44,726 bases of DNA, from the IMG/VR virus record IMGVR_UViG_2802429225_000004. The stretch is one strand, 5' to 3'. The position numbers and the translations under genes are program-made. Source of the DNA: a virus. Taxonomy: Duplodnaviria > Heunggongvirae > Uroviricota > Caudoviricetes. Every line of letters begins with the position of its first letter. The first letter of the stretch is position 1. Under the pieces are notes generated by a model. It ran no database searches. It saw only the letters and a list, made by a program, of their open reading frames with translations, and had not been told where the DNA came from. Positions 1 through 43,783 of the stretch are shown here, piece by piece.

Positions 1-1131
1 TCAAATAACCAGTTTTTTCCACTCCTTACCGCGTGCGTCGTTGTAAATATCGGTCATTTTTTGATTCGAATGACCCAGCAAAATTTTGGTATCAATTCCC
101 TGTTCTCTGAACAATCTTTCTGATAAAGATCTTTGCTCATGGAAAGAGGGTGGAGTGCCATTAGCACGCCAGTTGTAATCCACAGAATCCCGGGCTTTTT
201 TAAATGCAACTGTTAACGTTGCTGGTTTAACCATCCCGCCGCGCTTACCCATCCCCTTAGCGTGATGATGGTGCAATAACCACGGACTAAGGATGTAATC
301 ACGACAGGATGACACCACGTCACCTAGGGTCAGATTTAATTTGTCGCAACGCAGAGCCAGAGGAATGGCTATCCGGGCTCCTGTTTTTTGCTGTTCGACA
401 TGAAGGTAACCATCCCGGATATCCGAAAACTGCATTTTGCAAATATCCGAAAGACGCTGGCCCGTCATCAGTGCCAGCAGCATGCCGCGCTGTAAAAAGT
501 AACCATCCTTTTCCGCTGCGTTATAAATCATCATCCACTCATCAAAAGTCAGTCGCTGTCTTGATATCCGCACTTGCGGTTTTTTTGCCGATTCAGCCGG
601 GTTAAAGCCTGGCGGGACATCACCCGTTTGTTGAGCCTCCCGGAAAACATCGATCAATACCTTCCTGAAAATTTGTCCCATTCTGTTATGTCCCTTTGCC
701 TTGTATTCTTCCAGCACCGATACCACATCTTTTACGGTTATGGCATCTAGCGGCCTGGCTCCAAAACGTTCATCAAACACCCTGAGAGGAGCCGCTTTTT
801 GTTTCAGCGTGCTGAGCTTGATTTCTCCGTTCTCATATCTTTCCTGTTGAATTTTTCTGTAATTATTCAGAAAAATGGAAACGGTTGATGCGCCGCCGGT
901 ATCACTAATAATTTTCTCCTGCAGACTGAGCATTTGCTCCATTTGTTGTCTGGCAAGACGGCTGTTCGCTTCTGCTGCAATGGTTTCCGCCAGTTTCTGG
1001 TCAATACTGCCGAGTCCATGATTTTTACCTGTGATGGGATGCCTGTAACGCCAGTAAACTTTGTTATTTCTTTTGTCAAAATACGGAGATAAACCCGGAA
1101 CATCGGTTTTATATTTTCGCGGGCGCGCCAT
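1..1131 (-). CDS. int: Phage integrase, tyrosine recombinase (lambda Int family); stop codon is the first codon of the window
   Basis: 376-aa ORF; C-terminal catalytic-domain motifs typical of tyrosine recombinases (HxxR...Y region, LLGHSNQKMTDIY); position at prophage end next to xis. Confidence 0.9.
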   Translation of the reverse strand: MARPRKYKTDVPGLSPYFDKRNNKVYWRYRHPITGKNHGLGSIDQKLAETIAAEANSRLARQQMEQMLSLQEKIISDTGGASTVSIFLNNYRKIQQERYENGEIKLSTLKQKAAPLRVFDERFGARPLDAITVKDVVSVLEEYKAKGHNRMGQIFRKVLIDVFREAQQTGDVPPGFNPAESAKKPQVRISRQRLTFDEWMMIYNAAEKDGYFLQRGMLLALMTGQRLSDICKMQFSDIRDGYLHVEQQKTGARIAIPLALRCDKLNLTLGDVVSSCRDYILSPWLLHHHHAKGMGKRGGMVKPATLTVAFKKARDSVDYNWRANGTPPSFHEQRSLSERLFREQGIDTKILLGHSNQKMTDIYNDARGKEWKKLVI

Positions 1132-3976: not shown

Positions 3977-4180
3977 TTACGGTGCTGCTTTAAGTCCTGC
4001 CGGGATTTCGTTATTGTCCATGCGAATAACTTTATCAACCGGATAACAGTTGCCGGGAATTTTCTGTTCCGCTGCGGCAGCCATGCATTCTTTCATTGAG
4101 TCATGTATACCAATAACAAGATCGACTGGTTCGCCTGTATTAAGAAAAACTGTCAGAACGAGTGCAAATGCTGTATTCAT
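3977..4180 (-). CDS. ydfD: YdfD-like small secreted/lysis protein (DUF1482-type)
   Basis: Internal Met start MNTAFALVLTVFL... gives about 67 aa with N-terminal hydrophobic segment; resembles remembered Qin prophage YdfD; directly downstream of dicB-like gene as in the dicB operon. Confidence 0.5.
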   Translation of the reverse strand: MNTAFALVLTVFLNTGEPVDLVIGIHDSMKECMAAAAEQKIPGNCYPVDKVIRMDNNEIPAGLKAAP

Positions 4181-4182
4181 TG

Positions 4183-4365
4183 TCAGCGTCCTTTTTGCAT
4201 CAGGCGTAAACGGGCCAGCATTGAAACAATGCATATTTGATTTAATAGCTCCCGTTCGTGTTTTCTCTTATTAATGGCATCTTCAGTAAATACAGGGTTA
4301 CTGATTCTGACACCAATTTCAAAACAACCTTCAGACGTATTGACGTTTGGTAATAACGTTTCCAT
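4183..4365 (-). CDS. dicB: DicB-like cell-division inhibitor
   Basis: 60-aa product METLLPNVNTSEGCFEIGV...SMLARLRLM closely resembles remembered E. coli DicB; GAGGA RBS upstream; follows DicF-like terminator hairpin. Confidence 0.6.
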   Translation of the reverse strand: METLLPNVNTSEGCFEIGVRISNPVFTEDAINKRKHERELLNQICIVSMLARLRLMQKGR

Positions 4366-4548
4366 TATCGCGTCCTCAACAATGAATTTTGTGATGCGGT
4401 GCCTGGTGCCTCCAGGTGACGTTAACCAGTTAATAATTAACGCCGGATACAGAGAACCCACCCATAAGAACCAATACGGAAGTCAACTGGCCTTTTTAAC
4501 TGTTCCGCGTGCGCTGAGCCGCATTCACCGCATCACAAAATTCACTTT

Positions 4549-11949: not shown

Positions 11950-12020
11950 CGTCCTGCAAGACGCTTAACATTAATCTGAGGCCATATCTATGACTTGCAC
12001 ACGTAGGTTAGCCTCTTACG
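11950..12020 (-). ncRNA. Putative Sok-type antisense RNA region of the hok locus
   Basis: Inferred from the canonical hok/mok/sok organisation only; boundaries not resolvable from sequence. Confidence 0.25.
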
Positions 12021-12046
12021 TGCCGAAAGGCAAGGAGAAGCAGGCT

Positions 12047-12202
12047 ATGAAGCAGCAAAAGGCGATGTTAATCGCCCTGATCGTCATCTGTTTAACCGTC
12101 ATAGTGACGGCACTGGTAACGAGGAAAGACCTCTGCGAGGTACGAATCCGAACCGGCCAGACGGAGGTCGCTGTCTTCACAGCTTACGAACCTGAGGAGT
12201 AA
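12047..12202 (+). CDS. hok: Hok-family type I toxin (HokD/RelF-like); overlapping mok frame begins at 11990
   Basis: 51-aa product MKQQKAMLIALIVICLTVIVTALVTRKDLCEVRIRTGQTEVAVFTAYEPEE is a hallmark Hok sequence; upstream overlapping reading frame as in mok. Confidence 0.85.
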   Translation: MKQQKAMLIALIVICLTVIVTALVTRKDLCEVRIRTGQTEVAVFTAYEPEE

Positions 12203-15008: not shown

Positions 15009-15368
15009 ATGCGTATAGAGTTTGTTTTGCCTTACCCACCGACGGTGAACACCTACTGGCGACGTCGTGGCAGCACATATTTTGTATCAAAAGCCGGTGA
15101 GCGTTATCGCCGGGATGTGGCACTTATTGTTCGCCAGCAGCGACTGAAATTAAACCTGTCCGGAAGGCTGGCGATAAAGATTATTGCAGAGCCACCGGAT
15201 AAGCGCCGTCGTGACTTGGACAATATCCTGAAAGCACTACTGGATGCGCTGACGCATGCGGGACTACTCATAGACGACGAGCAGTTTGATGAAATTAATA
15301 TTGTGCGCGGTCTGCCTGTTCCTGGTGGTCGGTTGGGGATAAAAATCACAGAACTGGAGTGCGCATGA
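15009..15368 (+). CDS. rusA: RusA Holliday-junction resolvase
   Basis: 119 aa; conserved RusA pattern DKRRRDLDNILKALLDALTHAGLLIDDEQ...GGRLGIKITE. Confidence 0.8.
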   Translation: MRIEFVLPYPPTVNTYWRRRGSTYFVSKAGERYRRDVALIVRQQRLKLNLSGRLAIKIIAEPPDKRRRDLDNILKALLDALTHAGLLIDDEQFDEINIVRGLPVPGGRLGIKITELECA

Positions 15369-16054
15369 ATAACCAGTATTTACAGTTTGTTCGTGAGCAG
15401 CTCATTATCGCCACCGCCGATTTGAGTGGGGCAACAAAAGGCCAGCTTGAAGCCTGGCTGGAGAATGCCATGTTCGATACAGGGCGTTACAGGCGTAAAA
15501 AAATCCGGTACCGCGATGAAGTGACTGGAAAAATGGTCACGCGGGATAATCCACCAATCCCGGGGAAACAATCGCTGGCAAAGGGGACGTCAATTCCTCT
15601 GGTAAGTCAGGTTGAGTTTTCGACATCATCATGGCGACGGGCAGTTCTGTCTCTTGAAGAGCACCATAAAGCCTGGTTGCTGTGGTGTTACAGCGGCAGC
15701 ATTTGCTGGGAACACCAGATTGCGATAACACAGTGGGTGTGGAATGAATTTAACGCCCAATCCGGTACCAGAAAAATTGCAGGGAAAACGCTGGAGCGCC
15801 TGAAAAAATTAATCTGGCTGGCGGCACAGGATGTGAAGAGTGAGCTGGCTGGGCGTGAAACTTATGAATATCAGGAACTGGCATTACTGGCGGGAGTAAC
15901 AACAAAAAACTGGTCCAAAACATTTACTGGTCACTGGGTTGCAATGAAACACATTTTCCACCGTCTGGATAGTGAGGCTTTATTGTTTGTGATGAGAACA
16001 CGCTCAGAACAAAAGGCGGCATTTTCAAAGCAAAGTGTTGCAAAAGTAGATTAA
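15365..16054 (+). CDS. Late-gene antiterminator Q-like protein
   Basis: Position immediately after rusA and before tR'/tRNAs/lysis; ATG overlaps rusA stop (ATGA); family assignment by synteny. Confidence 0.5.
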   Translation: MNNQYLQFVREQLIIATADLSGATKGQLEAWLENAMFDTGRYRRKKIRYRDEVTGKMVTRDNPPIPGKQSLAKGTSIPLVSQVEFSTSSWRRAVLSLEEHHKAWLLWCYSGSICWEHQIAITQWVWNEFNAQSGTRKIAGKTLERLKKLIWLAAQDVKSELAGRETYEYQELALLAGVTTKNWSKTFTGHWVAMKHIFHRLDSEALLFVMRTRSEQKAAFSKQSVAKVD

Positions 16055-16379: not shown

Positions 16380-16455
<76 letters not shown>

Positions 16456-16458
16456 TAT

Positions 16459-16533
<75 letters not shown>

Positions 16534-16802
16534 TAGTAGTAAGGCGAGATTGTGTTATGCACTGACACATTATATATGTGGGGATGGTTTTTGGCCTCTT
16601 TATCCACGTCCCGTTCTGTAATGAGTGATACCAATTGCAGTCCAGTGCTATTTTTTTACACCATCGGAATGGTGCATCATTGGTAGAGATTTGCAATATC
16701 TCTGGCAGGGTCGGTGATGCATCATCCCGATGTTGTAAACATCGCTAAACGTGACATTGAGATTAATCATATACTAATCAAAATCTGGTAATACATCCTT
16801 AA

Positions 16803-16827
16803 CCGCCGTACCAGGCGGTTTTTTTTA
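16803..16827 (+). terminator. Rho-independent terminator
   Basis: CCGCC-GTACCA-GGCGG hairpin followed by T8. Confidence 0.5.
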
Positions 16828-17203
16828 TTCCTGCATCAAACAAAAAAATACACGAGCATCCTGGAATACTCGTGGGACAAAGTCCTTTAGATAGCAATTT
16901 GCGAGAGGGTGAAAAAATGGCGCGGCTGTCGGATTAAAGCCGCGGGACAAAGTCCATGAAGAATAATAAGTATCAGCCTCCTACAGGAGACGAGTTGATA
17001 TTACTAAGCTTTAAAAATGGTTTAAATCCTCAGATTAACCTTAATTTCAGGTAAGTCTTATTTCATTTCTTCGCGCCGCGCCCGGCGCACATCAAAAACC
17101 ACAGAGCCTTTCAGGGGTGAGCTTACGGGATGGTCAGTGTGACTTTCTCTGTGGGCTGGTCACCCTCCGGGCGCAGGCTCACCCACTAAAAGGAAAAGTC
17201 ACG

Positions 17204-17629
17204 ATGTTTGGTATTTTCAAAAAGAAAACCCGCAAGGCCATTACTGAAGTAAAGAAAATGGAGAACCGCGATGCAGTGGAGGCGACCGTCTGGGGCGCGT
17301 ATTCCATTGCATACGCTGACGGCACCTGTGACGCGAAAGAAATCGCGGTGCTGGAGAAAACCATTGCAGCACTTCCTGCTTTTGCGCCGTTCTCCGGTGA
17401 GATTGCACAAATGAGTGCAAATATCCGCGCCCGTTATGAAGCGTCGCCGCGCTCTGCCAATGCTGAAGCCCTTCGTCAGTTGGCTGACGTGGCAGGAACA
17501 GACGATGCAGTTAATGTGCTGTGCCTGTGTCTGGATATCGCTGACCAGGATGGCATTGGTCCGGATGAAGAAGCACAGCTCAAGAAAATTGCTCAGGCGC
17601 TTCAGCTACCGCTGGAGCAGTACCTGTGA
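17204..17629 (+). CDS. TerB-like (tellurite-resistance TerB fold) small protein; moron between Q and lysis genes
   Basis: ATG with AAAGGAAAAG RBS; about 141 aa with TerB-like paired-helix pattern (AYADGTCDAKEIAVLEK...DIADQDGIGPDEEAQLKKIA). Confidence 0.5.
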   Translation: MFGIFKKKTRKAITEVKKMENRDAVEATVWGAYSIAYADGTCDAKEIAVLEKTIAALPAFAPFSGEIAQMSANIRARYEASPRSANAEALRQLADVAGTDDAVNVLCLCLDIADQDGIGPDEEAQLKKIAQALQLPLEQYL

Positions 17630-17778
17630 AAAGTGCGCGCCTTGTGCTGGCTGCCATCCTGCTGTTTCTGGTAGTGGCGGTGGATTTCACCGGACGGCTG
17701 ATGTCGGTGCTGGCAGATGGTGTGCTGGTGGCGATGGCGCTGGTCGTGCTCCGGCCTTTACTGCATAAATCTGAATAA
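17626..17778 (+). CDS. Small hydrophobic membrane peptide (about 50 aa)
   Basis: GTG overlapping TerB-like stop; VKSARLVLAAILLFLVVAVDF...VLVAMALVVL; below ORF-track cutoff. Confidence 0.3.
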   Translation: MKSARLVLAAILLFLVVAVDFTGRLMSVLADGVLVAMALVVLRPLLHKSE

Positions 17779-17830
17779 CATCACACAAAAGGCATCTGCG
17801 GGTGCCTTTGACGGGGTGTTGTTTTTTTAC

Positions 17831-17852
17831 GGGCCGCTGGTGGCCCTTTTTT
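17831..17852 (+). terminator. Rho-independent terminator upstream of the lysis cassette
   Basis: GGGCC-GCTGGT-GGCCC hairpin followed by T6. Confidence 0.5.
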
Positions 17853-17870
17853 ATTTACAGGAGAAAAAGT

Positions 17871-18263
17871 ATGTCTGAACCCTTATCCGGTTCCGGCACG
17901 GCTGCGGCGCTCGGCGGGGCGACGGTATTCGGGCTGTTTACCGGAACGGATTTCGGGATTGTGTTTGGTGCGTTCGCCGGGGCGTTATTTGTGGCAACGA
18001 TGCCGCAGGCGCTTTCAGCCTGGCGTGTGGCAGCGCATTTTCTGGTGTCGTTCATTATCGGCGTGCTGGGCGCAGAGGTTCTGGCATCCTGGCTGGTAAA
18101 GCATACAGAGTTTGATGGTGCACCTGTTGACGCATTGTGTGCAGTGCTGGTGTCTGTATTGTCGGTAAAAGTGCTGTCCTTTGTGCACAGGCAGGACGTT
18201 ATATCACTGATGTCCTGTCTGCTCTCCCGCCTGAAGAGTGGAGGAGGCGATAATGTTAAGTAA
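17871..18263 (+). CDS. Holin-like membrane protein
   Basis: ATG with AGGAGAAAAAG RBS; multiple Gly/Ala-rich predicted TM segments; first gene of lysis cassette. Confidence 0.55.
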   Translation: MSEPLSGSGTAAALGGATVFGLFTGTDFGIVFGAFAGALFVATMPQALSAWRVAAHFLVSFIIGVLGAEVLASWLVKHTEFDGAPVDALCAVLVSVLSVKVLSFVHRQDVISLMSCLLSRLKSGGGDNVK

Positions 18264-18528
18264 CCTTCCCGGATTGCTGAATGTGGCGTTATGCACGGTT
18301 ATCGTGCTGACGCTCTTTTTTTATCGTCGCCGTGATTCCAGACATAAACCGCTGATGTCATGGCTGGCCTGGCTGCTGATGCTGCTGTATGCCTTTGCGC
18401 CCCTCAGCTATCTGTGCGGTCGCCCGTTAGCGGCGAACTGGCTGGCGGTGGGGCTTAATCTGCTGTTCTGCGTGCTGGTGATTCGTGCACGCGGGAACGT
18501 TTCAAAAATCCTTTCATTTCGGAGGTGA
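18252..18528 (+). CDS. Second small membrane protein (holin/antiholin-like)
   Basis: Overlaps first holin end; 2-3 hydrophobic segments. Confidence 0.45.
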
Positions 18529-18530
18529 GC

Positions 18531-18908
18531 ATGTCGGGTAAATTCAGATTCAGTCGTCGTAGCGAAAAAAATCTGGAGGGCGTCAAACCACAGCTGGTTG
18601 CTGTAGTTCGCCGTGCACTGGAGCTGACGGAAGTTGATTTCGGTATTACGGAAGGTCTGCGCAGTAAGTATCGCCAGAAACAGCTGGTTGCAGAAGGTAA
18701 GAGCCAGACCATGAACAGCCGCCACCTGACCGGTGATGCTGTGGATGTTGTGGCTTATGTTGGCAGCCAGGTGTCATGGGACTGGCCTCTGTACGAGAAA
18801 ATCGCACAGGCATTTAAGCAGGCTGCCGCAGAGCTTGGAACTGCCATCGAATGGGGCGGTGACTGGCGGACGCTTAAAGACGGCCCACATTTTCAATTGA
18901 AGCGATAG
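18531..18908 (+). CDS. Endolysin, peptidase M15 (L-alanyl-D-glutamate/VanY-like) family
   Basis: GGAGG RBS; Zn-binding motif pattern SRHLTGDAVDV ... DGPHFQL (H-x6-D ... H). Confidence 0.7.
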   Translation: MSGKFRFSRRSEKNLEGVKPQLVAVVRRALELTEVDFGITEGLRSKYRQKQLVAEGKSQTMNSRHLTGDAVDVVAYVGSQVSWDWPLYEKIAQAFKQAAAELGTAIEWGGDWRTLKDGPHFQLKR

Positions 18909-18978
18909 CTTGCAAAACATACAGGGCTGCCATGAGCGGCTTTTTTATTGCTCAAAAAACGAAAGAACGGAGGTACAT

Positions 18979-19260
18979 ATGTACGCACTGAAAAAAATTA
19001 CCGTAACTGAAGATGGTCGCCAGGTTGAGGAAGTGCATGTCCTGGGGGATATGTATCGTCTGGAGTTCTATCCGCGTGGCACTCATCTTGCAGCAAAAAT
19101 TGAGTATTGCCTGGGCGGGGATATTCCATGTATTCCGGTAGAAAAAGAGGATGAGGCTTACATTACCACGCTGACCGGAGACACGGTGCGTTGTATCTGT
19201 CGCGGTGGCAGTAAAGCCAGGAATGAAATAGCCAGATGCCGCACCCAAGGCAGTAAATAA
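18979..19260 (+). CDS. Hypothetical Cys-containing 94-aa protein
   Basis: Internal ATG with GGAGG RBS; no TM segment, not spanin-like. Confidence 0.4.
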   Translation: MYALKKITVTEDGRQVEEVHVLGDMYRLEFYPRGTHLAAKIEYCLGGDIPCIPVEKEDEAYITTLTGDTVRCICRGGSKARNEIARCRTQGSK

Positions 19261-19269
19261 AAAACAAAA

Positions 19270-19301
19270 CCCCGGCTGCTGGAACAGTCCGGGGTTTTTT
19301 T
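19270..19301 (+). terminator. Rho-independent terminator
   Basis: CCCCGG...CCGGGG hairpin followed by T7. Confidence 0.55.
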
Positions 19302-19392
19302 AGTTTTCACGTCAAAGAGGAAATTGTGAGTAGTGAGTACGGAGAAAATCCTCGTGGGAAAGTATAAAAGATTCTTTTTGAGGTTGTCCATT

Positions 19393-19506
19393 ATGAAAGG
19401 TATTGAAGTGGAAACTCCCGCGAGCTTTGATTTGACAAGGGCTGCGGCCTTTGCAGTTCGCCTTGTGGCGGTCGCTGTTCTGATTTGGGCTGTGCGTTGG
19501 TGGTGA
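19393..19506 (+). CDS. Small TM peptide (37 aa)
   Basis: Manually translated; hydrophobic C-terminal half AAAFAVRLVAVAVLIWAVRWW; stop 1 nt before next ATG. Confidence 0.3.
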   Translation: MKGIEVETPASFDLTRAAAFAVRLVAVAVLIWAVRWW

Positions 19507-19507
19507 C

Positions 19508-19690
19508 ATGAGCCGAAAACACTGGACACACAGAATGCCTCGAACGGCGGTGAAATGGGCGCTGGTAGCGATACTGGTGCCTTTTTTCCTGGTGGGATGT
19601 GTCAGCCTGGATAAAGCGCGCCAGCTTTTTGATACAGCTTCTCAGGTCTGTGAAATTGTCGACGGTGTTCGGCAGTGTCTGCAGAACTGA
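19508..19690 (+). CDS. Small lipoprotein (signal peptide with lipobox LVGC), possible o-spanin-like or exclusion lipoprotein
   Basis: 60-aa ORF; N-terminal signal sequence ending FFLVGC; mature part about 30 aa with 3 Cys. Confidence 0.45.
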   Translation: MSRKHWTHRMPRTAVKWALVAILVPFFLVGCVSLDKARQLFDTASQVCEIVDGVRQCLQN

Positions 19691-19861
19691 TCGCCTGTAA
19701 GAGCAGAATATTTTGCTGAAAAATGAAGGATGTGTCAGCGTCTGGAAAGCATGAAATTCTGTGTTTGTGGCTACTCAATTAAATAAATTCTTTCTGTCGC
19801 CGCGAATACTCAAATGTTGATCAGCGCCCGGTGCGGCGACGGGCTTCGATATCAGGAGACG

Positions 19862-20161: not shown

Positions 20162-20414
20162 CGGGCATTACAGCAGCCCTTCAGCGAGGGGCTGCGATAA
20201 TGCAACACAGGAATAAAAACCGGCCAGGGAGAATCCGTTAAAGGTCTGCCGGTGGCGAAAAAGTGCCAGGTGCTCAACCTAAGCTGATTCTCTGTTGAAC
20301 ACAATAATTTTATTTACATCTATGTGAATGCGTAGGGCTTCTGTGATGCACGTCATGTTAATGATGTATGGATATGCGAATCATTCCCATTTTCACGGGT
20401 CCTTTCCAGAATCT

Positions 20415-20612
20415 GAAATACCGAGGGTCTGGGGACGCGCAAAAACGCGCTATTTATGAAAATTTTCAGGGAAAAAGCAGATCCGTTCTTCTTCTGGCTA
20501 ACCTGTTGTGTAATAAAATTTTCTTGAGAAAAAGAAAGGATCTGGTAGCGGTGATTTTTCGCTGAAAAAAGCGTTTTGAGATCCTTTCTTCTTTTTGTGA
20601 GGAATATGTGCC
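20415..20612. other. Lambda-like cos region (cosN/cosB) upstream of Nu1
   Basis: Segment ...GGGTCTGGGGACGCGCAAAAACGCGCTATTTATGAAAATTTTC...CCGTTCTTCTTC...GAAAAAGAAAGGA closely parallels remembered lambda left-end sequence. Confidence 0.45.
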
Positions 20613-21161
20613 GTGAAGGTTAACAAAAAGAAACTAGCGGAAATTTTTGAGTGCGATGTCAGAACAATCACTGGCTGGCAAAGTCAGGGGCTGAGAGTTT
20701 TGTCGGGGGGAGGCAAAGGTATCGAGGCCATGTTCAATACAGCAGAAGCCATTGAGTGGTATGCGCAGCGGGAAAAAGATATCGAAAACGAAAAGCTCCG
20801 CAAAGAACTGGAAGATTTGCGTGCGGCTGCAGAATCAGATTTACAACCCGGCACCATTGACTATGAACGCTACCGGCTCACCAAAGCACAGGCTGACGCA
20901 CAGGAGCTGAAAAATGCCCGTGAAGAAGGGCTGGTGCTGGAAACGGAATTGTTTACCTTCATTCTGCAACGTGTGGCACAGGAGATTTCGGGGATACTTG
21001 TACGTGTGCCGCTGACATTACAGCGTAAATATCCGGATATTTCACCATCACACCTTGATGTGGTGAAAACTGAAATCGCGAAAGCCTCCAATGTTGCAGC
21101 TAAAGCCGGTGAAAACGTGGGCAGGTGGATTGATGATTTCAGACGCACAGAAGGCAGCTAA
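20613..21161 (+). CDS. Nu1: Terminase small subunit (lambda Nu1-like)
   Basis: [35 protein letters not shown] aligns with remembered lambda Nu1 N-terminus; GTG start. Confidence 0.85.
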
Positions 21162-29842: not shown

Positions 29843-30455
29843 GGTTCTGGGGGATTTACAGCGCCGCCTGGCAAATATGGTCCGGCGCGGGGTGATCCAC
29901 TCGGTGCGGCTGGACGGTGGTTTTCCGGAATGCCGCGTGGATCTGGGGGATATTGTGACCACCTGGCTGCCATTATGTCAGGGGTTTGCCGGAAAAAACA
30001 GGGCAGATTTTGAGCCGTTTGCTGTGGGTGATGCGGTTACGGTGCTGTCAGAGGCCGGGGAGCTGAATAACGGTCGTGTTTTTCCCGGCTGGAATACCGG
30101 TGAGGCACCGGCTCCGCAGGGCAGCGACAGTGAGCACATCACCCGTTACGGAGATGGTACTGAAATTTGCTATAACCGGGAGACGCACTCACTGACCATT
30201 ATTCTGGCGGAAGGGGGCACCTATGCCATTACCGGGAATGGTGTACTGGACGGAAACGTCATGATTTCAGAAAACCTGATCGTGAACGGACGCACGATGG
30301 TTGAAGGTGAAGTGGTGGTGAAAAGTGATTTTTATGCAAAAGGAGAGGTGACGGATAAATCCGGCAGTATGAGCCGGATCCGGGAAACGTTTAATGGACA
30401 CGACCATCCCGGAGACAGTGGGGGAACCACGAAAGTACCGAATCAGAAAATGTGA
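29820..30455 (+). CDS. Baseplate spike/assembly protein gpV-like (P2 V family)
   Basis: N-terminal OB-like region and C-terminal HDHPGDSGGTT motif match remembered P2 gpV. Confidence 0.7.
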   Translation: MRESHVNEVLGDLQRRLANMVRRGVIHSVRLDGGFPECRVDLGDIVTTWLPLCQGFAGKNRADFEPFAVGDAVTVLSEAGELNNGRVFPGWNTGEAPAPQGSDSEHITRYGDGTEICYNRETHSLTIILAEGGTYAITGNGVLDGNVMISENLIVNGRTMVEGEVVVKSDFYAKGEVTDKSGSMSRIRETFNGHDHPGDSGGTTKVPNQKM

Positions 30456-30493
30456 CCTGCTGCGGCAGGTTTTTTTATGTCCGGAGAATGCAA

Positions 30494-31963
30494 ATGGGGC
30501 AATTACATGGTGTGGAAACCATCGAGCTGACAGCAGGCACGGTGGCGGTAACCACAATAGAGACAGCCATTATTGGGGTGGTGGGAACCGCGCCGCAGGC
30601 TGCCGGGGCTGTGGCAGCAACACTGACAGCGGGAACGCCGTTGCTGGGTAACGAGCTGACCTTTACGGCAAAAGCGGCGGGGCGGAGCGGAAATACCATT
30701 ACCGTTATTGCTGAACAGGCTTTACAGGCAGCAAAAGAAAAAAGTGCGGGTGCGGTCCCCACGTCAGCAAAATGGGAAAACGGAAGCCTGTTGATTTGGC
30801 TTGGATGCAGTGAAGAGGGGGCCGGTAATGCCACCGTCAGCGATGTTGTGACGGCAGTGAATGGCGTGGCTGGGGTCGGGGTGAGTGCCACCGGCAGCGG
30901 TGACGGTATTGTGTCGCCGTTTTCCGGCACACTGAGTGGCGGTGAAGATGAACCGTTTCCGCTGAACACGCCAGTGGCGATGGCGGGAACAACGGCGCTT
31001 TCACGTCTGGGGCTCACCGGAACACTGAAGCAGGCGCTGACGGAGATTAACGACCAGCGTAACGCGCTGTCGGTGATCGTCCGGGTGGAAGAAAAAACGA
31101 AGCCGGAAGAGCAGCGTGCTGCCATTCTTGCGGGGATCAGCATGCTGTCATCGGCAAAATCCGTCACCACGTATCAGCCACGTATTGTGATTGCACCAGG
31201 ATTCAGTGAAGACGATGCGGTAGGTAAGGCACTGGAAACTGTGGCCGGAAAACTGCGGGCAGTGGCGTACGTGGATTGTGCTGCGGGCGCGACACTGCAG
31301 GAAGTGGTGCAGCGTCGTCAGTCTTACGGTGCCCGGACTGAACTACTGCGCCCGCGTGTGCAGGTCAGTAATGCAGAGGGGCAACTGGTGTATCGCCCGT
31401 ATTCGGCGTTTGCTGCCGGACTGCGTGCCCGTATTGACTATGAAAAAGGGTGGTGGTGGAGCAAATCAAACCAGGAGGTTTACAACATCCTCGGTGTTGA
31501 GCAGGTGGATGAATTTATCCTCGGTGAGCGTAACTGCGATGCCAACCTGCTTAATATGCAGAATGTCTCCACCCTGATCCGCCGCGCCGGATTTAAACAC
31601 TGGGGAAACCGGCTGTGCTCGTCCCATCCTCAGTGGCATTTCGAGTCCGTCCGCCGTACTGCGGATGTGATTGAAGACAGTATTCAGGAAGCGATGCTGG
31701 CATATGTTGACCGCCCGCTTGATCGTCAGAATGCGGACGACATCATTGGCACCATTAATGCGTATATGCGCCGTCTGGTGGCAGAAGGTGCCATCTTCGG
31801 GGGGCGGGCATGGCTGGATCCGGAACTGAATACCGCCGAAACGCTGGCAGCCGGTGAACTGTACATCAACTATGACTTCGGTCCCAAATCGCCGACTGAA
31901 CTTATCAGCATGCGGGTGAGCGTCAACAACGAATACGGCATTAAGGAGATGAAGGCAACATGA
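30494..31963 (+). CDS. Contractile tail sheath protein (P2 FI / Mu L family) with an extra internal region
   Basis: N-terminus HGVETIELTAGT...TAIIGVVGTA resembles P2 FI; large size with roughly 100-aa insertion near N-terminus. Confidence 0.8.
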   Translation: MGQLHGVETIELTAGTVAVTTIETAIIGVVGTAPQAAGAVAATLTAGTPLLGNELTFTAKAAGRSGNTITVIAEQALQAAKEKSAGAVPTSAKWENGSLLIWLGCSEEGAGNATVSDVVTAVNGVAGVGVSATGSGDGIVSPFSGTLSGGEDEPFPLNTPVAMAGTTALSRLGLTGTLKQALTEINDQRNALSVIVRVEEKTKPEEQRAAILAGISMLSSAKSVTTYQPRIVIAPGFSEDDAVGKALETVAGKLRAVAYVDCAAGATLQEVVQRRQSYGARTELLRPRVQVSNAEGQLVYRPYSAFAAGLRARIDYEKGWWWSKSNQEVYNILGVEQVDEFILGERNCDANLLNMQNVSTLIRRAGFKHWGNRLCSSHPQWHFESVRRTADVIEDSIQEAMLAYVDRPLDRQNADDIIGTINAYMRRLVAEGAIFGGRAWLDPELNTAETLAAGELYINYDFGPKSPTELISMRVSVNNEYGIKEMKAT

Positions 31964-42686: not shown

Positions 42687-42714
42687 AGTGAGGGGGCGCC
42701 CCTCACTATTTATT
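42687..42714 (+). terminator. Hairpin terminator between convergent tfa and cargo genes
   Basis: 9-bp stem AGTGAGGGG-GCG-CCCCTCACT followed by ATTTATT. Confidence 0.5.
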
Positions 42715-43258
42715 ACCACCAGCTATCAGCTTTACTCTCTCGTGCTTTTCCCTCACTTTGCAACAATTCTTTGGTACCAGTTGAAATATTACGCCGAGCA
42801 TCCGCTTCTGATTGAATAACGTCAGTTTGTGCAGCCCGCTCCTTGAGTTCTTGGTCCAGAAAATCGTTTGCTCTATTTACCCTGGCCCTTTTAGCTTCGA
42901 GTTCGAGTTTTCGGTTTTCTAGCTCAAGTTGGCGTAATTGATCTTCATAATCTTGATCGCGTTTTTTATCTGCCGCCATCTCCGCTTCGAGCTTAGCTTT
43001 ACGCTCAAACTCAGCCGCTCGTCGTTGTTTTTCTTTTGCTGCTGCCATAGCCGCTGCTTTCTCTTTGCGAATCCTTTCCGCATTGGCACGTTGGCGCTCT
43101 TGTTCTTTACGTGCATCTTCAATACGTTTTTCTTCGGCTTTACCTTCATTTTCGGCTCGCGCAATAGCCGCTAATTGTTCCTGTAAAGAAGACGCGTTAA
43201 CGTAAAAAGTGCTTAGGCACGGCAAAGCTAATAGTATATATAAAGCAAGACGTGTCAT
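42713..43258 (-). CDS. Secreted/periplasmic coiled-coil protein (TolA-like K/E/A/R-rich), unknown function
   Basis: 181 aa; N-terminal signal-peptide-like segment MTRLALYILLALPCLSTFYVNA then charged heptad-like repeats; 12 nt downstream of SlyB-like gene. Confidence 0.5.
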   Translation of the reverse strand: MTRLALYILLALPCLSTFYVNASSLQEQLAAIARAENEGKAEEKRIEDARKEQERQRANAERIRKEKAAAMAAAKEKQRRAAEFERKAKLEAEMAADKKRDQDYEDQLRQLELENRKLELEAKRARVNRANDFLDQELKERAAQTDVIQSEADARRNISTGTKELLQSEGKARESKADSWW

Positions 43259-43270
43259 CTGAAATGGCCA

Positions 43271-43783
43271 TTATTTATTATCAGGGCATGTTGCATTTGG
43301 TTGAATACGTGTTTCGTTTTCTTTAGTTGAAATCATGGCTGCTAATCCAGGTGCAAATTGGCAAGCTCTACCAACTTGAGTCGATGTATAAACTTTTGTA
43401 CCTTCTTTGTATGTTAGAGAAACGCCTTCAACAATTGTTTTATCTTTGACTAATGAACCAGCGGCTGCACCAAGTGCGGTTCCACCTACAGCCCCTGCGG
43501 TGGTTGCCAGTTTCGAACCACTTTTGGTGTTATGTCCAATTACTCCTCCAGCAACGGCACCAACTACAGCACCGAATGTTTGTGCTGCTTCTTTATTTTC
43601 TTTGTTGTCCACAGCAATTTTTGCAGGAAGAACCGAAATGATAGTTATCATTTTGGTTTCTTGTTTGGAATTAACCTGAGTGGTGTCATAAACATCTGCA
43701 GCAAGATGTTCTGCAGTAGACTGACACCCACTTAATGCAAAGACAGCTAATAAAGAAATGGTTGCTTTATTTAATTTCAACAT
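43271..43783 (-). CDS. SlyB-like outer-membrane lipoprotein (glycine-zipper domain)
   Basis: Lipobox LSGC; glycine zipper GAVVGAVAGGVIG...AGAVGGTALGAAAG; overall pattern resembles remembered E. coli SlyB; AGGAGAG RBS. Confidence 0.6.
   Translation of the reverse strand: MLKLNKATISLLAVFALSGCQSTAEHLAADVYDTTQVNSKQETKMITIISVLPAKIAVDNKENKEAAQTFGAVVGAVAGGVIGHNTKSGSKLATTAGAVGGTALGAAAGSLVKDKTIVEGVSLTYKEGTKVYTSTQVGRACQFAPGLAAMISTKENETRIQPNATCPDNK

Follow-up and report, generated by a model that had tools for sequence, protein, structure and literature searches.

A small lipoprotein in the spanin position of a phiP27-like prophage lysis cassette without recognizable Rz/Rz1 genes

How is the outer membrane disrupted when a phage lysis cassette encodes no recognizable spanin? 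Spanins are regarded as a near-universal last step in the lysis of Gram-negative hosts. The question is raised by the IMG/VR virus record IMGVR_UViG_2802429225_000004 (Caudoviricetes), a stretch of 44,726 nucleotides (nt) that was analyzed at its full length and is referred to below as the window. Its lysis region (17871-19690) encodes two holin-like proteins and an M15-peptidase endolysin, followed by a 37-amino-acid (aa) membrane peptide and a 60-aa lipoprotein. The original prediction, made from the letters of this DNA alone, had offered two accounts of the two small genes, namely a minimal spanin equivalent and a Cor/Bor-like exclusion module. The position of the lipoprotein gene, its ancestry, the selection acting on it and the lack of any other spanin suggest that the lipoprotein belongs to the lysis cassette and acts at the outer-membrane step. 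This reading, in which the 37-aa peptide is no dedicated partner of the lipoprotein, has a probability of roughly 0.55.

The lipoprotein gene (19508..19690, plus strand) encodes a 60-aa prolipoprotein that matched phrog_7528 (E 6.5e-37). Its long, basic n-region leads to the lipobox LVGC, whose cysteine (Cys31) is encoded at 19598-19600 and is followed by Val at +2. LVGC followed by VS had a hydrophobic core score of 3.1 in the lipobox scan, a lipoprotein signal of the kind expected of an outer-membrane spanin subunit (o-spanin). The mature lipoprotein, CVSLDKARQLFDTASQVCEIVDGVRQCLQN, has 30 residues, three of them basic and four acidic (net charge about -1), and a polar C-terminus (…RQCLQN); the signal peptide is the sole hydrophobic segment. 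The family alignment, which reaches down to about 35% identity, showed no variation at G30, C31, C48 or C57 and very little at the remaining lipobox positions. C48 and C57 would lie in the periplasm, where they could form the intermolecular disulfides that some spanins need (PMC6139136). Across 42 distinct alleles the ratio of nonsynonymous to synonymous polymorphism (pN/pS) was 0.185 in the coding frame, against about 1-2 in the remaining frames, and substitutions among related loci were biased to synonymous sites of the annotated frame. An AlphaFold2 model built from a 19-sequence alignment predicted one continuous helix at moderate confidence, and a heptad-like hydrophobic pattern was visible in the mature part on reading the sequence.

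The family was mapped through its neighboring genes in a set of 80 viral contigs and three genomes encoding relatives (IMG/VR and GTDB). In essentially all of about 85 loci the lipoprotein gene lay 3' of the endolysin gene on the same strand. The commonest layout comprised a Phage_holin_8 gene, a Phage_holin_3_7 gene, the M15 endolysin gene, a 14-nt spacer with a Shine-Dalgarno-like AGGTG, and the lipoprotein gene. In some loci a GH108 endolysin replaced the M15 enzyme and the position of the lipoprotein gene was unchanged. Some loci carried insertions between endolysin and lipoprotein: a 93-aa open reading frame (ORF), an Ant-like gene, small membrane ORFs and, in phiP27, a minus-strand 90-aa gene. 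Downstream neighbors differed from locus to locus and included several terminase types, orf99 or a minus-strand bor gene. The loci with bor reproduced the lambda order S-R-Rz/Rz1-bor, the lipoprotein gene occupying the Rz/Rz1 position.

A profile search through 1.84 billion representative proteins yielded only 25 relatives, nearly all of them 44-85 residues long; three were long partial matches (220-1169 aa). Every short relative that was inspected had a lipobox and the pattern GC-x16-C-x8/9-C. Three divergent members were placed in their cassettes: one downstream of Q, after a lambda-S-type holin and an M15 endolysin; one in a Mu-like phage, where its start overlaps the stop of a GH108 endolysin gene; and one in a Lelliottia prophage, after a GH108 endolysin and another holin. 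The family is narrow and enterobacterial, and occurs with at least three holin types and two endolysin types in both lambdoid and Mu-like phages. Because holin, endolysin, tail and packaging types all vary, the constant feature is the location after the endolysin gene, which is the spanin position. The arrangement of M15 endolysin plus lipoprotein was present in about 260 of 5426 complete E. coli genomes, and the family occurs in the Shiga-toxin phages phiP27 (Stx2e) and phiSTEC1575 (Stx2k). The Prokaryotic Genome Annotation Pipeline (PGAP) leaves the intact gene unannotated in some E. coli genomes (e.g., locus L093, 3501-3683). One Mu-like phage (locus L096) has, in addition to the intact lipoprotein gene, a fragment that partly repeats its 3' end (QFFDAVAQVCRIIDGIRQCSQN, 4120-4185), about 240 nt further downstream. 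SerU-LTIIb (locus L089, 3070-5694) has the same two holins and a different endolysin, followed by LT-IIb enterotoxin genes; neither Rz/Rz1 nor the lipoprotein was detectable in that cassette.

The original prediction had found no canonical Rz/Rz1 pair at the cassette, and this held over the whole window. Searches of the window by tblastn with Rz queries (lambda-, SfV- and P88 DUF2570-type) and Rz1 queries (lambda- and SfV-type) found nothing. The lipobox scan of all window ORFs gave, besides the 60-aa protein, one credible lipoprotein only, a 170-aa protein encoded on the minus strand. Among the roughly 85 loci with an intact lipoprotein, no lambda-, SfV- or DUF2570-type Rz was present within 6 kb, and bor was the only other recurrent lipobox ORF. 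The complete phiP27 genome likewise yielded no Rz or Rz1 homolog and contained no other late-region lipoprotein. Nowhere in the loci examined were an intact lipoprotein gene and canonical Rz/Rz1 seen together.

The search for an inner-membrane subunit (i-spanin) was similarly unproductive. A scan of the window for ORFs with an N-terminal transmembrane domain returned only hok and a minus-strand DUF5384 protein. The former is a Hok/Gef-family type I toxin gene in the early region (12020-12202 or 12047-12202, plus strand; PF01848, E 1.2e-23; phrog_251 'MokW-like host killing') and was set aside as a toxin. The latter belongs to a moron-like minus-strand pair beyond the tail fibers (42713-43783), which consists of a 181-aa DUF5384 protein (42713-43258), carrying a signal peptide and a coiled coil rich in charged residues, and the 170-aa glycine-zipper/TraT-like lipoprotein (43271-43783; lipobox LSGC). 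As a spanin candidate this pair was rejected on its opposite strand and location, its wrong gene order, the 170-aa length of its lipoprotein and its absence from phiP27. An alternative frame within the endolysin gene (18733-18900) was dropped because its hydrophobic start is not kept in phiP27.

Two arrangements do contain Rz/Rz1, and in both the pair is followed by a minus-strand phosphatase gene and then by a damaged copy of the lipoprotein gene. In GER2, where canonical Rz/Rz1 is present, the copy has three in-frame stops. E. coli E10 shares the holin-holin-M15 cassette, and its copy lacks the 5' end and has diverged further; the E10-type arrangement was found in two genomes only. Decay of the lipoprotein gene beside Rz/Rz1 fits functional redundancy between the two, although this evidence is thin.

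The ancestry of the gene also leads to the spanins. The N-terminal 30 residues of the lipoprotein (SRKHWTHRMPRTAVKW…LVGC) aligned with the N-terminus of the SfV Rz1 o-spanin (SRSHWSHREPRKISKW…LTGC), a member of the family named 'Rz1-like lysis system protein LysC' (PF23793). BLASTP of the lipoprotein against SfV Rz1 gave E 1e-7, and SfV Rz1 matched phrog_7528 at E 4e-5. Alignment with LysC-type alignments by hhalign reached 96% probability (E 2e-9) over residues 2-35 only. When the phage collection was searched with the lipoprotein by tblastn, every weak match was in or at an Rz/Rz1 gene; a few of these genes carry another annotation (e.g., 'lipase chaperone'). In SfV the aligned N-terminal stretch is encoded where Rz1 overlaps Rz, and the other frame of the lipoprotein gene retains a trace of Rz sequence. 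Together, the homology of the signal peptide and the Rz trace indicate that the gene took its 5' end from a locus in which Rz and Rz1 overlapped and from which Rz has since gone. For the mature domain, kinship to LysC-type Rz1 or to the C-terminus of lambda-type Rz was considered on a short likeness seen by eye ('…IRxQCLN'; L[LF]D…C) and dropped, as hhalign, tblastn and the PHROG scan did not support it.

One member of the family has been catalogued before. In the spanin survey of Kongari et al. (2018; PMC6139136) phiP27 is listed in SpaninDB as a singleton with a 'separated' two-component spanin, whose combined periplasmic length of 62 residues is the shortest of 528 systems. The o-spanin of that pair (20706-20861) translates to MPRTAAKWALVAILVPFFLVGCVSLDKARQLFDTASQVCEIVDGVRQCLQN, a 51-aa form of the lipoprotein that is 95% identical to the window protein and occupies the same slot after the holin-holin-M15 cassette; its assignment in the survey was bioinformatic only. 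The published phiP27 i-spanin is a 64-codon ORF with a TTG start (20348-20542, plus strand; 4262-4456 in locus L002). It runs antisense to the 90-aa gene inserted in phiP27, and that gene matched phrog_36812 over its full length. Compared with a 45%-identical relative (locus L021), the 90-aa gene shows a coding-type substitution pattern, with changes most frequent at third, then first, then second codon positions; in this relative, stops interrupt every plus-strand frame across the i-spanin region. The region is missing from the window and is kept in only 4 of 88 loci. The TTG start, the antisense position, the stops and the absence elsewhere make the published i-spanin look like a spurious ORF, so that the family would be better called partnerless. 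The RefSeq annotation of phiP27 leaves the lipoprotein gene out and places gene L32 (20630-20785) over its 5' half in the wrong frame, the frame that retains the Rz trace. A literature search on the phiP27 spanin, disruptin and spaninless phages returned only the 2018 survey and the phiKT work, and nothing on the lipoprotein family.

From these results a sequence of events can be proposed. The lipoprotein would be the third component of the lysis cassette, in the place held in lambda by Rz/Rz1. It would be transcribed late from the Q-dependent operon, with Q-modified polymerase reading through the terminator at 19266-19304, by analogy with lambda. Export and lipidation at Cys31 would follow, and sequence rules predict sorting by the Lol system to the inner leaflet of the outer membrane, since Val rather than Asp stands at +2. 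The mature 30 residues, predicted to be helical, would probably form disulfide-linked oligomers through the two conserved cysteines. After the holin and the endolysin have removed the wall, the lipoprotein may help to destroy or destabilize the outer membrane, as its position and ancestry suggest. Its signal peptide descends from a LysC/SfV-type Rz1, and the 37-aa peptide gene ahead of it arrived by module exchange at the start codon. Once the wall has been removed, disulfide-linked oligomers might destabilize the inner leaflet, or the lipoprotein might touch the inner membrane; an unrecognized partner is a further possibility.

A narrower proposal, which we hold only tentatively, is that the family is a stand-alone outer-membrane disruptor: a single lipid-anchored helix with an o-spanin signal peptide and no partner. 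A more speculative variant would have the uncleaved precursor, with its long conserved basic n-region, serve as the inner-membrane half and the processed form as the outer half of a self-pairing, one-gene spanin.

Several points weigh against an outer-membrane lysis role. No inner-membrane partner of the lipoprotein is detectable, and under the accepted spanin model a mature domain of 30 residues cannot span the periplasm. The mature part has no detectable homology to LysC or to any o-spanin and is not proline-rich like lambda Rz1, and the AlphaFold model has a mean predicted local distance difference test (pLDDT) score of only 69. In the window itself a strong terminator and an inserted gene stand between the endolysin and lipoprotein genes. 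The redundancy signal comes from two arrangements only, and the E10 copy keeps an ORF from a GTG. Finally, synteny alone cannot separate outer-membrane disruption from another late periplasmic role.

The best of the rival explanations, itself unlikely, is that the lipoprotein is a normal o-spanin with an unrecognized partner, which might be a distant phage gene, a gene of the host or of another prophage, or a membrane protein of the cassette serving as anchor. The o-spanin ancestry of the signal peptide would agree with this, as would the two conserved periplasmic cysteines, which recall the disulfide-requiring spanins, and Kongari et al. state that widely separated partners would escape their search (PMC6139136). 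However, no membrane protein of type II topology that has a charged periplasmic domain turned up in the window, the DUF5384 pair is missing from the complete phiP27 genome, and the variety of holin and endolysin types among members leaves no phage membrane protein constant. The mature domain, which would be expected to bind the i-spanin, is moreover not homologous to that of LysC-type Rz1.

Rather less likely is that the lipoprotein is a moron unrelated to lysis that happens to lie in the hot spot for accessory genes between lysis and packaging; it might then block a receptor like Cor/Llp, confer serum resistance like Bor or have another role in lysogenic conversion. Morons are known from the interval between Rz and Nu1, which holds bor in related loci, a terminator precedes the gene in the window, small outer-membrane lipoproteins such as Cor, Llp and Bor are familiar, and PHROGs, Pfam and NCBIfam assign the protein no function. 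Against this, the gene is found on the late strand in every case, and it usually adjoins the endolysin gene or overlaps with it. It is linked to the upstream lysis genes and not to the variable downstream or tail genes, in lambdoid and Mu-like phages alike, and the promoter scan found no plus-strand promoter-like site ahead of it. The o-spanin signal peptide and the decay of the copy where Rz/Rz1 is present likewise speak against a moron. The exclusion-module account of the original prediction is therefore unlikely: the gene has the orientation of the late lysis genes and shows no tail linkage, and no Pfam or NCBIfam match places it with Cor or Bor.

The other account had joined the lipoprotein to the 37-aa peptide, whose gene (19393..19506, plus strand; MKGIEVETPASFDLTRAAAFAVRLVAVAVLIWAVRWW) matched phrog_4493 (E 1.2e-14). 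As had been predicted, the lipoprotein gene starts 1 nt after the stop of the peptide gene (TGAcATG), and the lipobox scan agreed with the LVGC assignment. GTG codons at 19333 and 19354 are possible alternative starts of the peptide. Its pN/pS was 0.125 in its own frame only, from just four alleles; the other frames of the small ORFs gave values of about 1-7. Both small ORFs are genuine genes and not chance ORFs, since each matched a PHROG family and was under purifying selection in the annotated frame only. The NCBIfam scan and the Pfam scan (E<0.1) returned no match for the peptide, the lipoprotein or the 93-aa ORF.

Homologs of the peptide were located by DNA searches; tblastn of the peptide against the phage collection gave no match, probably owing to the low-complexity filter. 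Its DNA matched several E. coli phages at the starts of Rz genes. In GER2, PhiR5_1 and E. coli O157:H7 the homologous 37-aa ORF stops 1 nt before the ATG of a canonical Rz. Peptide-like DNA was present in 867 of 5426 complete E. coli genomes, and in most of the matches listed the adjoining feature was a 'lysis protein', the PGAP name for Rz. Among lipoprotein loci, any homolog of the peptide was found in 43 of 88 and in none with the commonest layout; phiP27 does not have it. In the junction alignment the shared sequence ran up to TGGTGGTGA(C/T)ATGAA and then continued into either Rz or the lipoprotein gene, a divergence that indicates module exchange at the start codon. The peptide is a separate, widespread module that usually stands ahead of canonical Rz and is not the dedicated partner of the lipoprotein.

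That the peptide, as i-spanin, and the lipoprotein form a minimal two-component spanin is accordingly improbable. The 1-nt spacing, with probable translational coupling, the purifying selection on both genes and the general position of the peptide ahead of spanin genes all speak for such a pair. The peptide is nevertheless missing from most lipoprotein loci, which are compact, it precedes canonical Rz/Rz1 in hundreds of genomes, and the junction reflects module exchange exactly at the start codon. Its hydrophobic segment also sits at the extreme C-terminus (…VRWW-stop) and ends the protein, leaving no periplasmic domain, so the peptide cannot act as an i-spanin. The proposal of a minimal spanin equivalent was thus borne out in part: the lipoprotein occupies the Rz/Rz1 slot, has a LysC-type signal peptide and has a phiP27 homolog listed as an o-spanin (PMC6139136), and the pairing with the peptide did not stand.

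In many lambdoid prophages up to three distinct small hydrophobic ORFs (phrog_4906, phrog_1115 and phrog_4493; 37-48 aa) are stacked. They lie between the endolysin gene and the Rz or lipoprotein gene, as in loci L003 (2213-2561), L044 (5662-5996) and L099 (3009-3122), and may be an unstudied class of lysis-cassette membrane peptides. The 37-aa peptide, found ahead of spanin genes and in 867 E. coli genomes, is an uncharacterized candidate lysis-cassette gene.

The weakest explanation, that the lipoprotein gene is a non-functional relic of a deleted Rz/Rz1 locus in phages that forgo outer-membrane disruption, would suit the clear origin of its 5' end in an overlapped Rz/Rz1 and the Rz trace in the other frame (phiP27 'L32'), as well as the 91 of 677 phages (about 13%) without an identifiable spanin (PMC6139136), but is very improbable given intact ORFs in about 85 loci and about 260 E. 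coli genomes, a pN/pS of 0.19 in the coding frame versus about 1-2 in the others, and a family that keeps its lipobox and both cysteines to about 35% identity across several genera and phage types.

The remaining genes of the cassette were assigned as had been predicted, and Pfam and PHROG matches agreed on two holin-like proteins and an M15-peptidase endolysin. The first holin-like protein (17871..18263, plus strand; 130 aa, several transmembrane segments) matched PF16931 Phage_holin_8 (E 2.9e-22) and the holin family phrog_198 (E 1.3e-40). The second (18253..18528, plus strand; 91 aa, three transmembrane segments) matched PF05449 Phage_holin_3_7 (E 1.8e-21) and the holin family phrog_217. 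The endolysin (18531..18908, plus strand; 125 aa), an M15 metallopeptidase, matched PF13539 Peptidase_M15_4 (E 2.8e-12) and the endolysin family phrog_465 (E 1e-74). These matches span the catalytic domain only, and no N-terminal hydrophobic segment was evident by eye. The intrinsic terminator that had been noticed ahead of the small ORFs (19266..19304, plus strand) was recovered at the same site by the terminator scan. Its hairpin (19266-19298) has a 12-bp GC-rich stem followed by a U-run, with a folding free energy of -20.1 kcal/mol and a z-score of -3.78 against shuffled sequences.

Between the endolysin gene and this terminator lies the 93-aa ORF (18979..19260, plus strand), which did not figure in the original prediction. 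It encodes a soluble, Cys-rich protein that matched phrog_33497 (E 2.8e-53), and it is bracketed by a weak hairpin upstream (18923-18943) and the strong terminator downstream. The ORF was found in only 12 of 88 lipoprotein loci and is a moron-like insertion between the endolysin and the spanin slot; a role as a disruptin-like factor was dropped on the strength of the same count.

The window as a whole is a near-complete lambdoid E. coli prophage of the phiP27/phiSTEC1575-Stx2k kind that runs from the integrase gene (1-1131, minus strand) at its left end through the tail fibers (up to about 42650). Over positions 17800-19800 the window shared 90-92% identity with phiSTEC1575-Stx2k and phiP27 in their lysis regions. 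The Q antiterminator gene (15359..16054, plus strand; PF06323 Phage_antiter_Q, E 7.7e-94) defines the late operon that holds the lysis genes. The lysis and accessory region ends at the Nu1-type small terminase gene (20613..21161, plus strand; PF07471 Phage_Nu1, E 3.4e-85); the Nu1 and large-terminase genes begin at 20613, and the tail sheath is encoded at 30452-31963. Between Q and the holins (16380-17778, plus strand) are genes for tRNA-Thr and tRNA-Gly (16380-16533), a TerB-family gene (17201-17629) and a DUF3927 gene (17626-17778). No stx genes occur in this slot of the window, where phiP27 and phiSTEC1575 have stx2A/B. DNA 91-95% identical to this phiP27-like lysis region of E. coli was also present in PP818812.1, 'Actinobacillus phage vB_Apl-pPE4'. 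A Pasteurellaceae host is unexpected for such a phage and may reflect a mis-assigned host or contamination.

What was already known of the lipoprotein family is its single catalogue entry as the phiP27 o-spanin. What is new is that the family is widespread and always in the spanin slot, that only its signal peptide comes from a known o-spanin, and that its supposed partner appears to be nonexistent. The family bears on the means by which phages that lack a two-component spanin disrupt the outer membrane. In phiP27 (Stx2e) and phiSTEC1575 (Stx2k) lysis releases Shiga toxin, and the family is hence relevant to toxin release. It has the appearance of an evolutionary intermediate that has kept an o-spanin signal sequence, has no i-spanin gene and carries a mature domain not related to LysC-type ones. 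Two database entries call for correction: the phiP27 'two-component spanin', which has no credible i-spanin, and the wrong frame of L32. If the lipoprotein were a stand-alone disruptor, it would represent a third route to the final lysis step beside the spanins and the cationic disruptin, carried by about 5% of sequenced E. coli genomes.

Known systems resemble the window lipoprotein to different degrees. Bor, Cor, Llp and the colicin lysis proteins (bacteriocin release proteins, BRPs) are small lipoproteins of mobile elements. Prophage lipoproteins of the Cor, Llp and Bor types typically have a promoter of their own or lie on the opposite strand, and the genes for Cor and Llp show linkage to tail or receptor genes, whereas the window lipoprotein gene lies on the late strand by the endolysin gene, occurs with different tail modules and has no tail or receptor linkage. 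Bor is encoded by a separate, opposite-strand gene in the same loci. No Pfam, NCBIfam or annotated PHROG match placed the lipoprotein with Cor, Llp or Bor. In mature form BRPs measure about 28-33 residues; their lipobox is of the LxGC type, and they permeabilize the envelope. The likeness of the window lipoprotein to BRPs is one of size and lipobox only, and no Pfam family, Lysis_col (PF02402) included, matched at E<0.1.

Of the non-spanin routes, the disruptin of the spanin-less phage phiKT, gp28, is a cationic, antimicrobial-type peptide (bioRxiv 10.1101/515445). If the lipoprotein acts alone, it would share with gp28 a non-spanin route to outer-membrane disruption, and it would differ from this disruptin in its net charge of about -1 and its predicted lipid anchor. 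Reportedly, gp28 is not lipid-anchored. The u-spanin of T1, gp11, is likewise a single lysis-cassette gene with an N-terminal lipoprotein signal; at about 130 aa and with a C-terminal transmembrane domain in the inner membrane, it has a length and a second anchor that the window lipoprotein lacks.

Measured as a two-component spanin, the lipoprotein has the expected location in the lysis cassette, and the combined periplasmic domains fall short of the bridging length. Lambda Rz/Rz1 has no sequence similarity to it, and differs in its embedded architecture, its i-spanin and the proline-rich character of Rz1. The lambda pair nonetheless occupies the same slot, after the endolysin gene and before bor and Nu1, and lambda Rz1 is a similarly small mature lipoprotein of the late operon with periplasmic cysteine. 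Related through its signal peptide is the LysC/SfV-type Rz1 (PF23793, phrog_456), which always overlaps a DUF2570-type Rz and whose mature part, about 70 residues long, contains a proline-rich linker and a C-terminal domain that is conserved. The window lipoprotein, by comparison, has a mature part of 30 residues with two cysteines and no Rz; it did not match PF23793 and lacks the LysC mature-domain profile (the Pro-rich linker and the LLSALGQCNxDK region). With LysC-type Rz1 it shares a homologous n-region and signal peptide (SRxHW[ST]HRxPRxxxKW … GC). Both are lipoproteins encoded after the endolysin gene, and P88-like phages have the same M15 type of endolysin.

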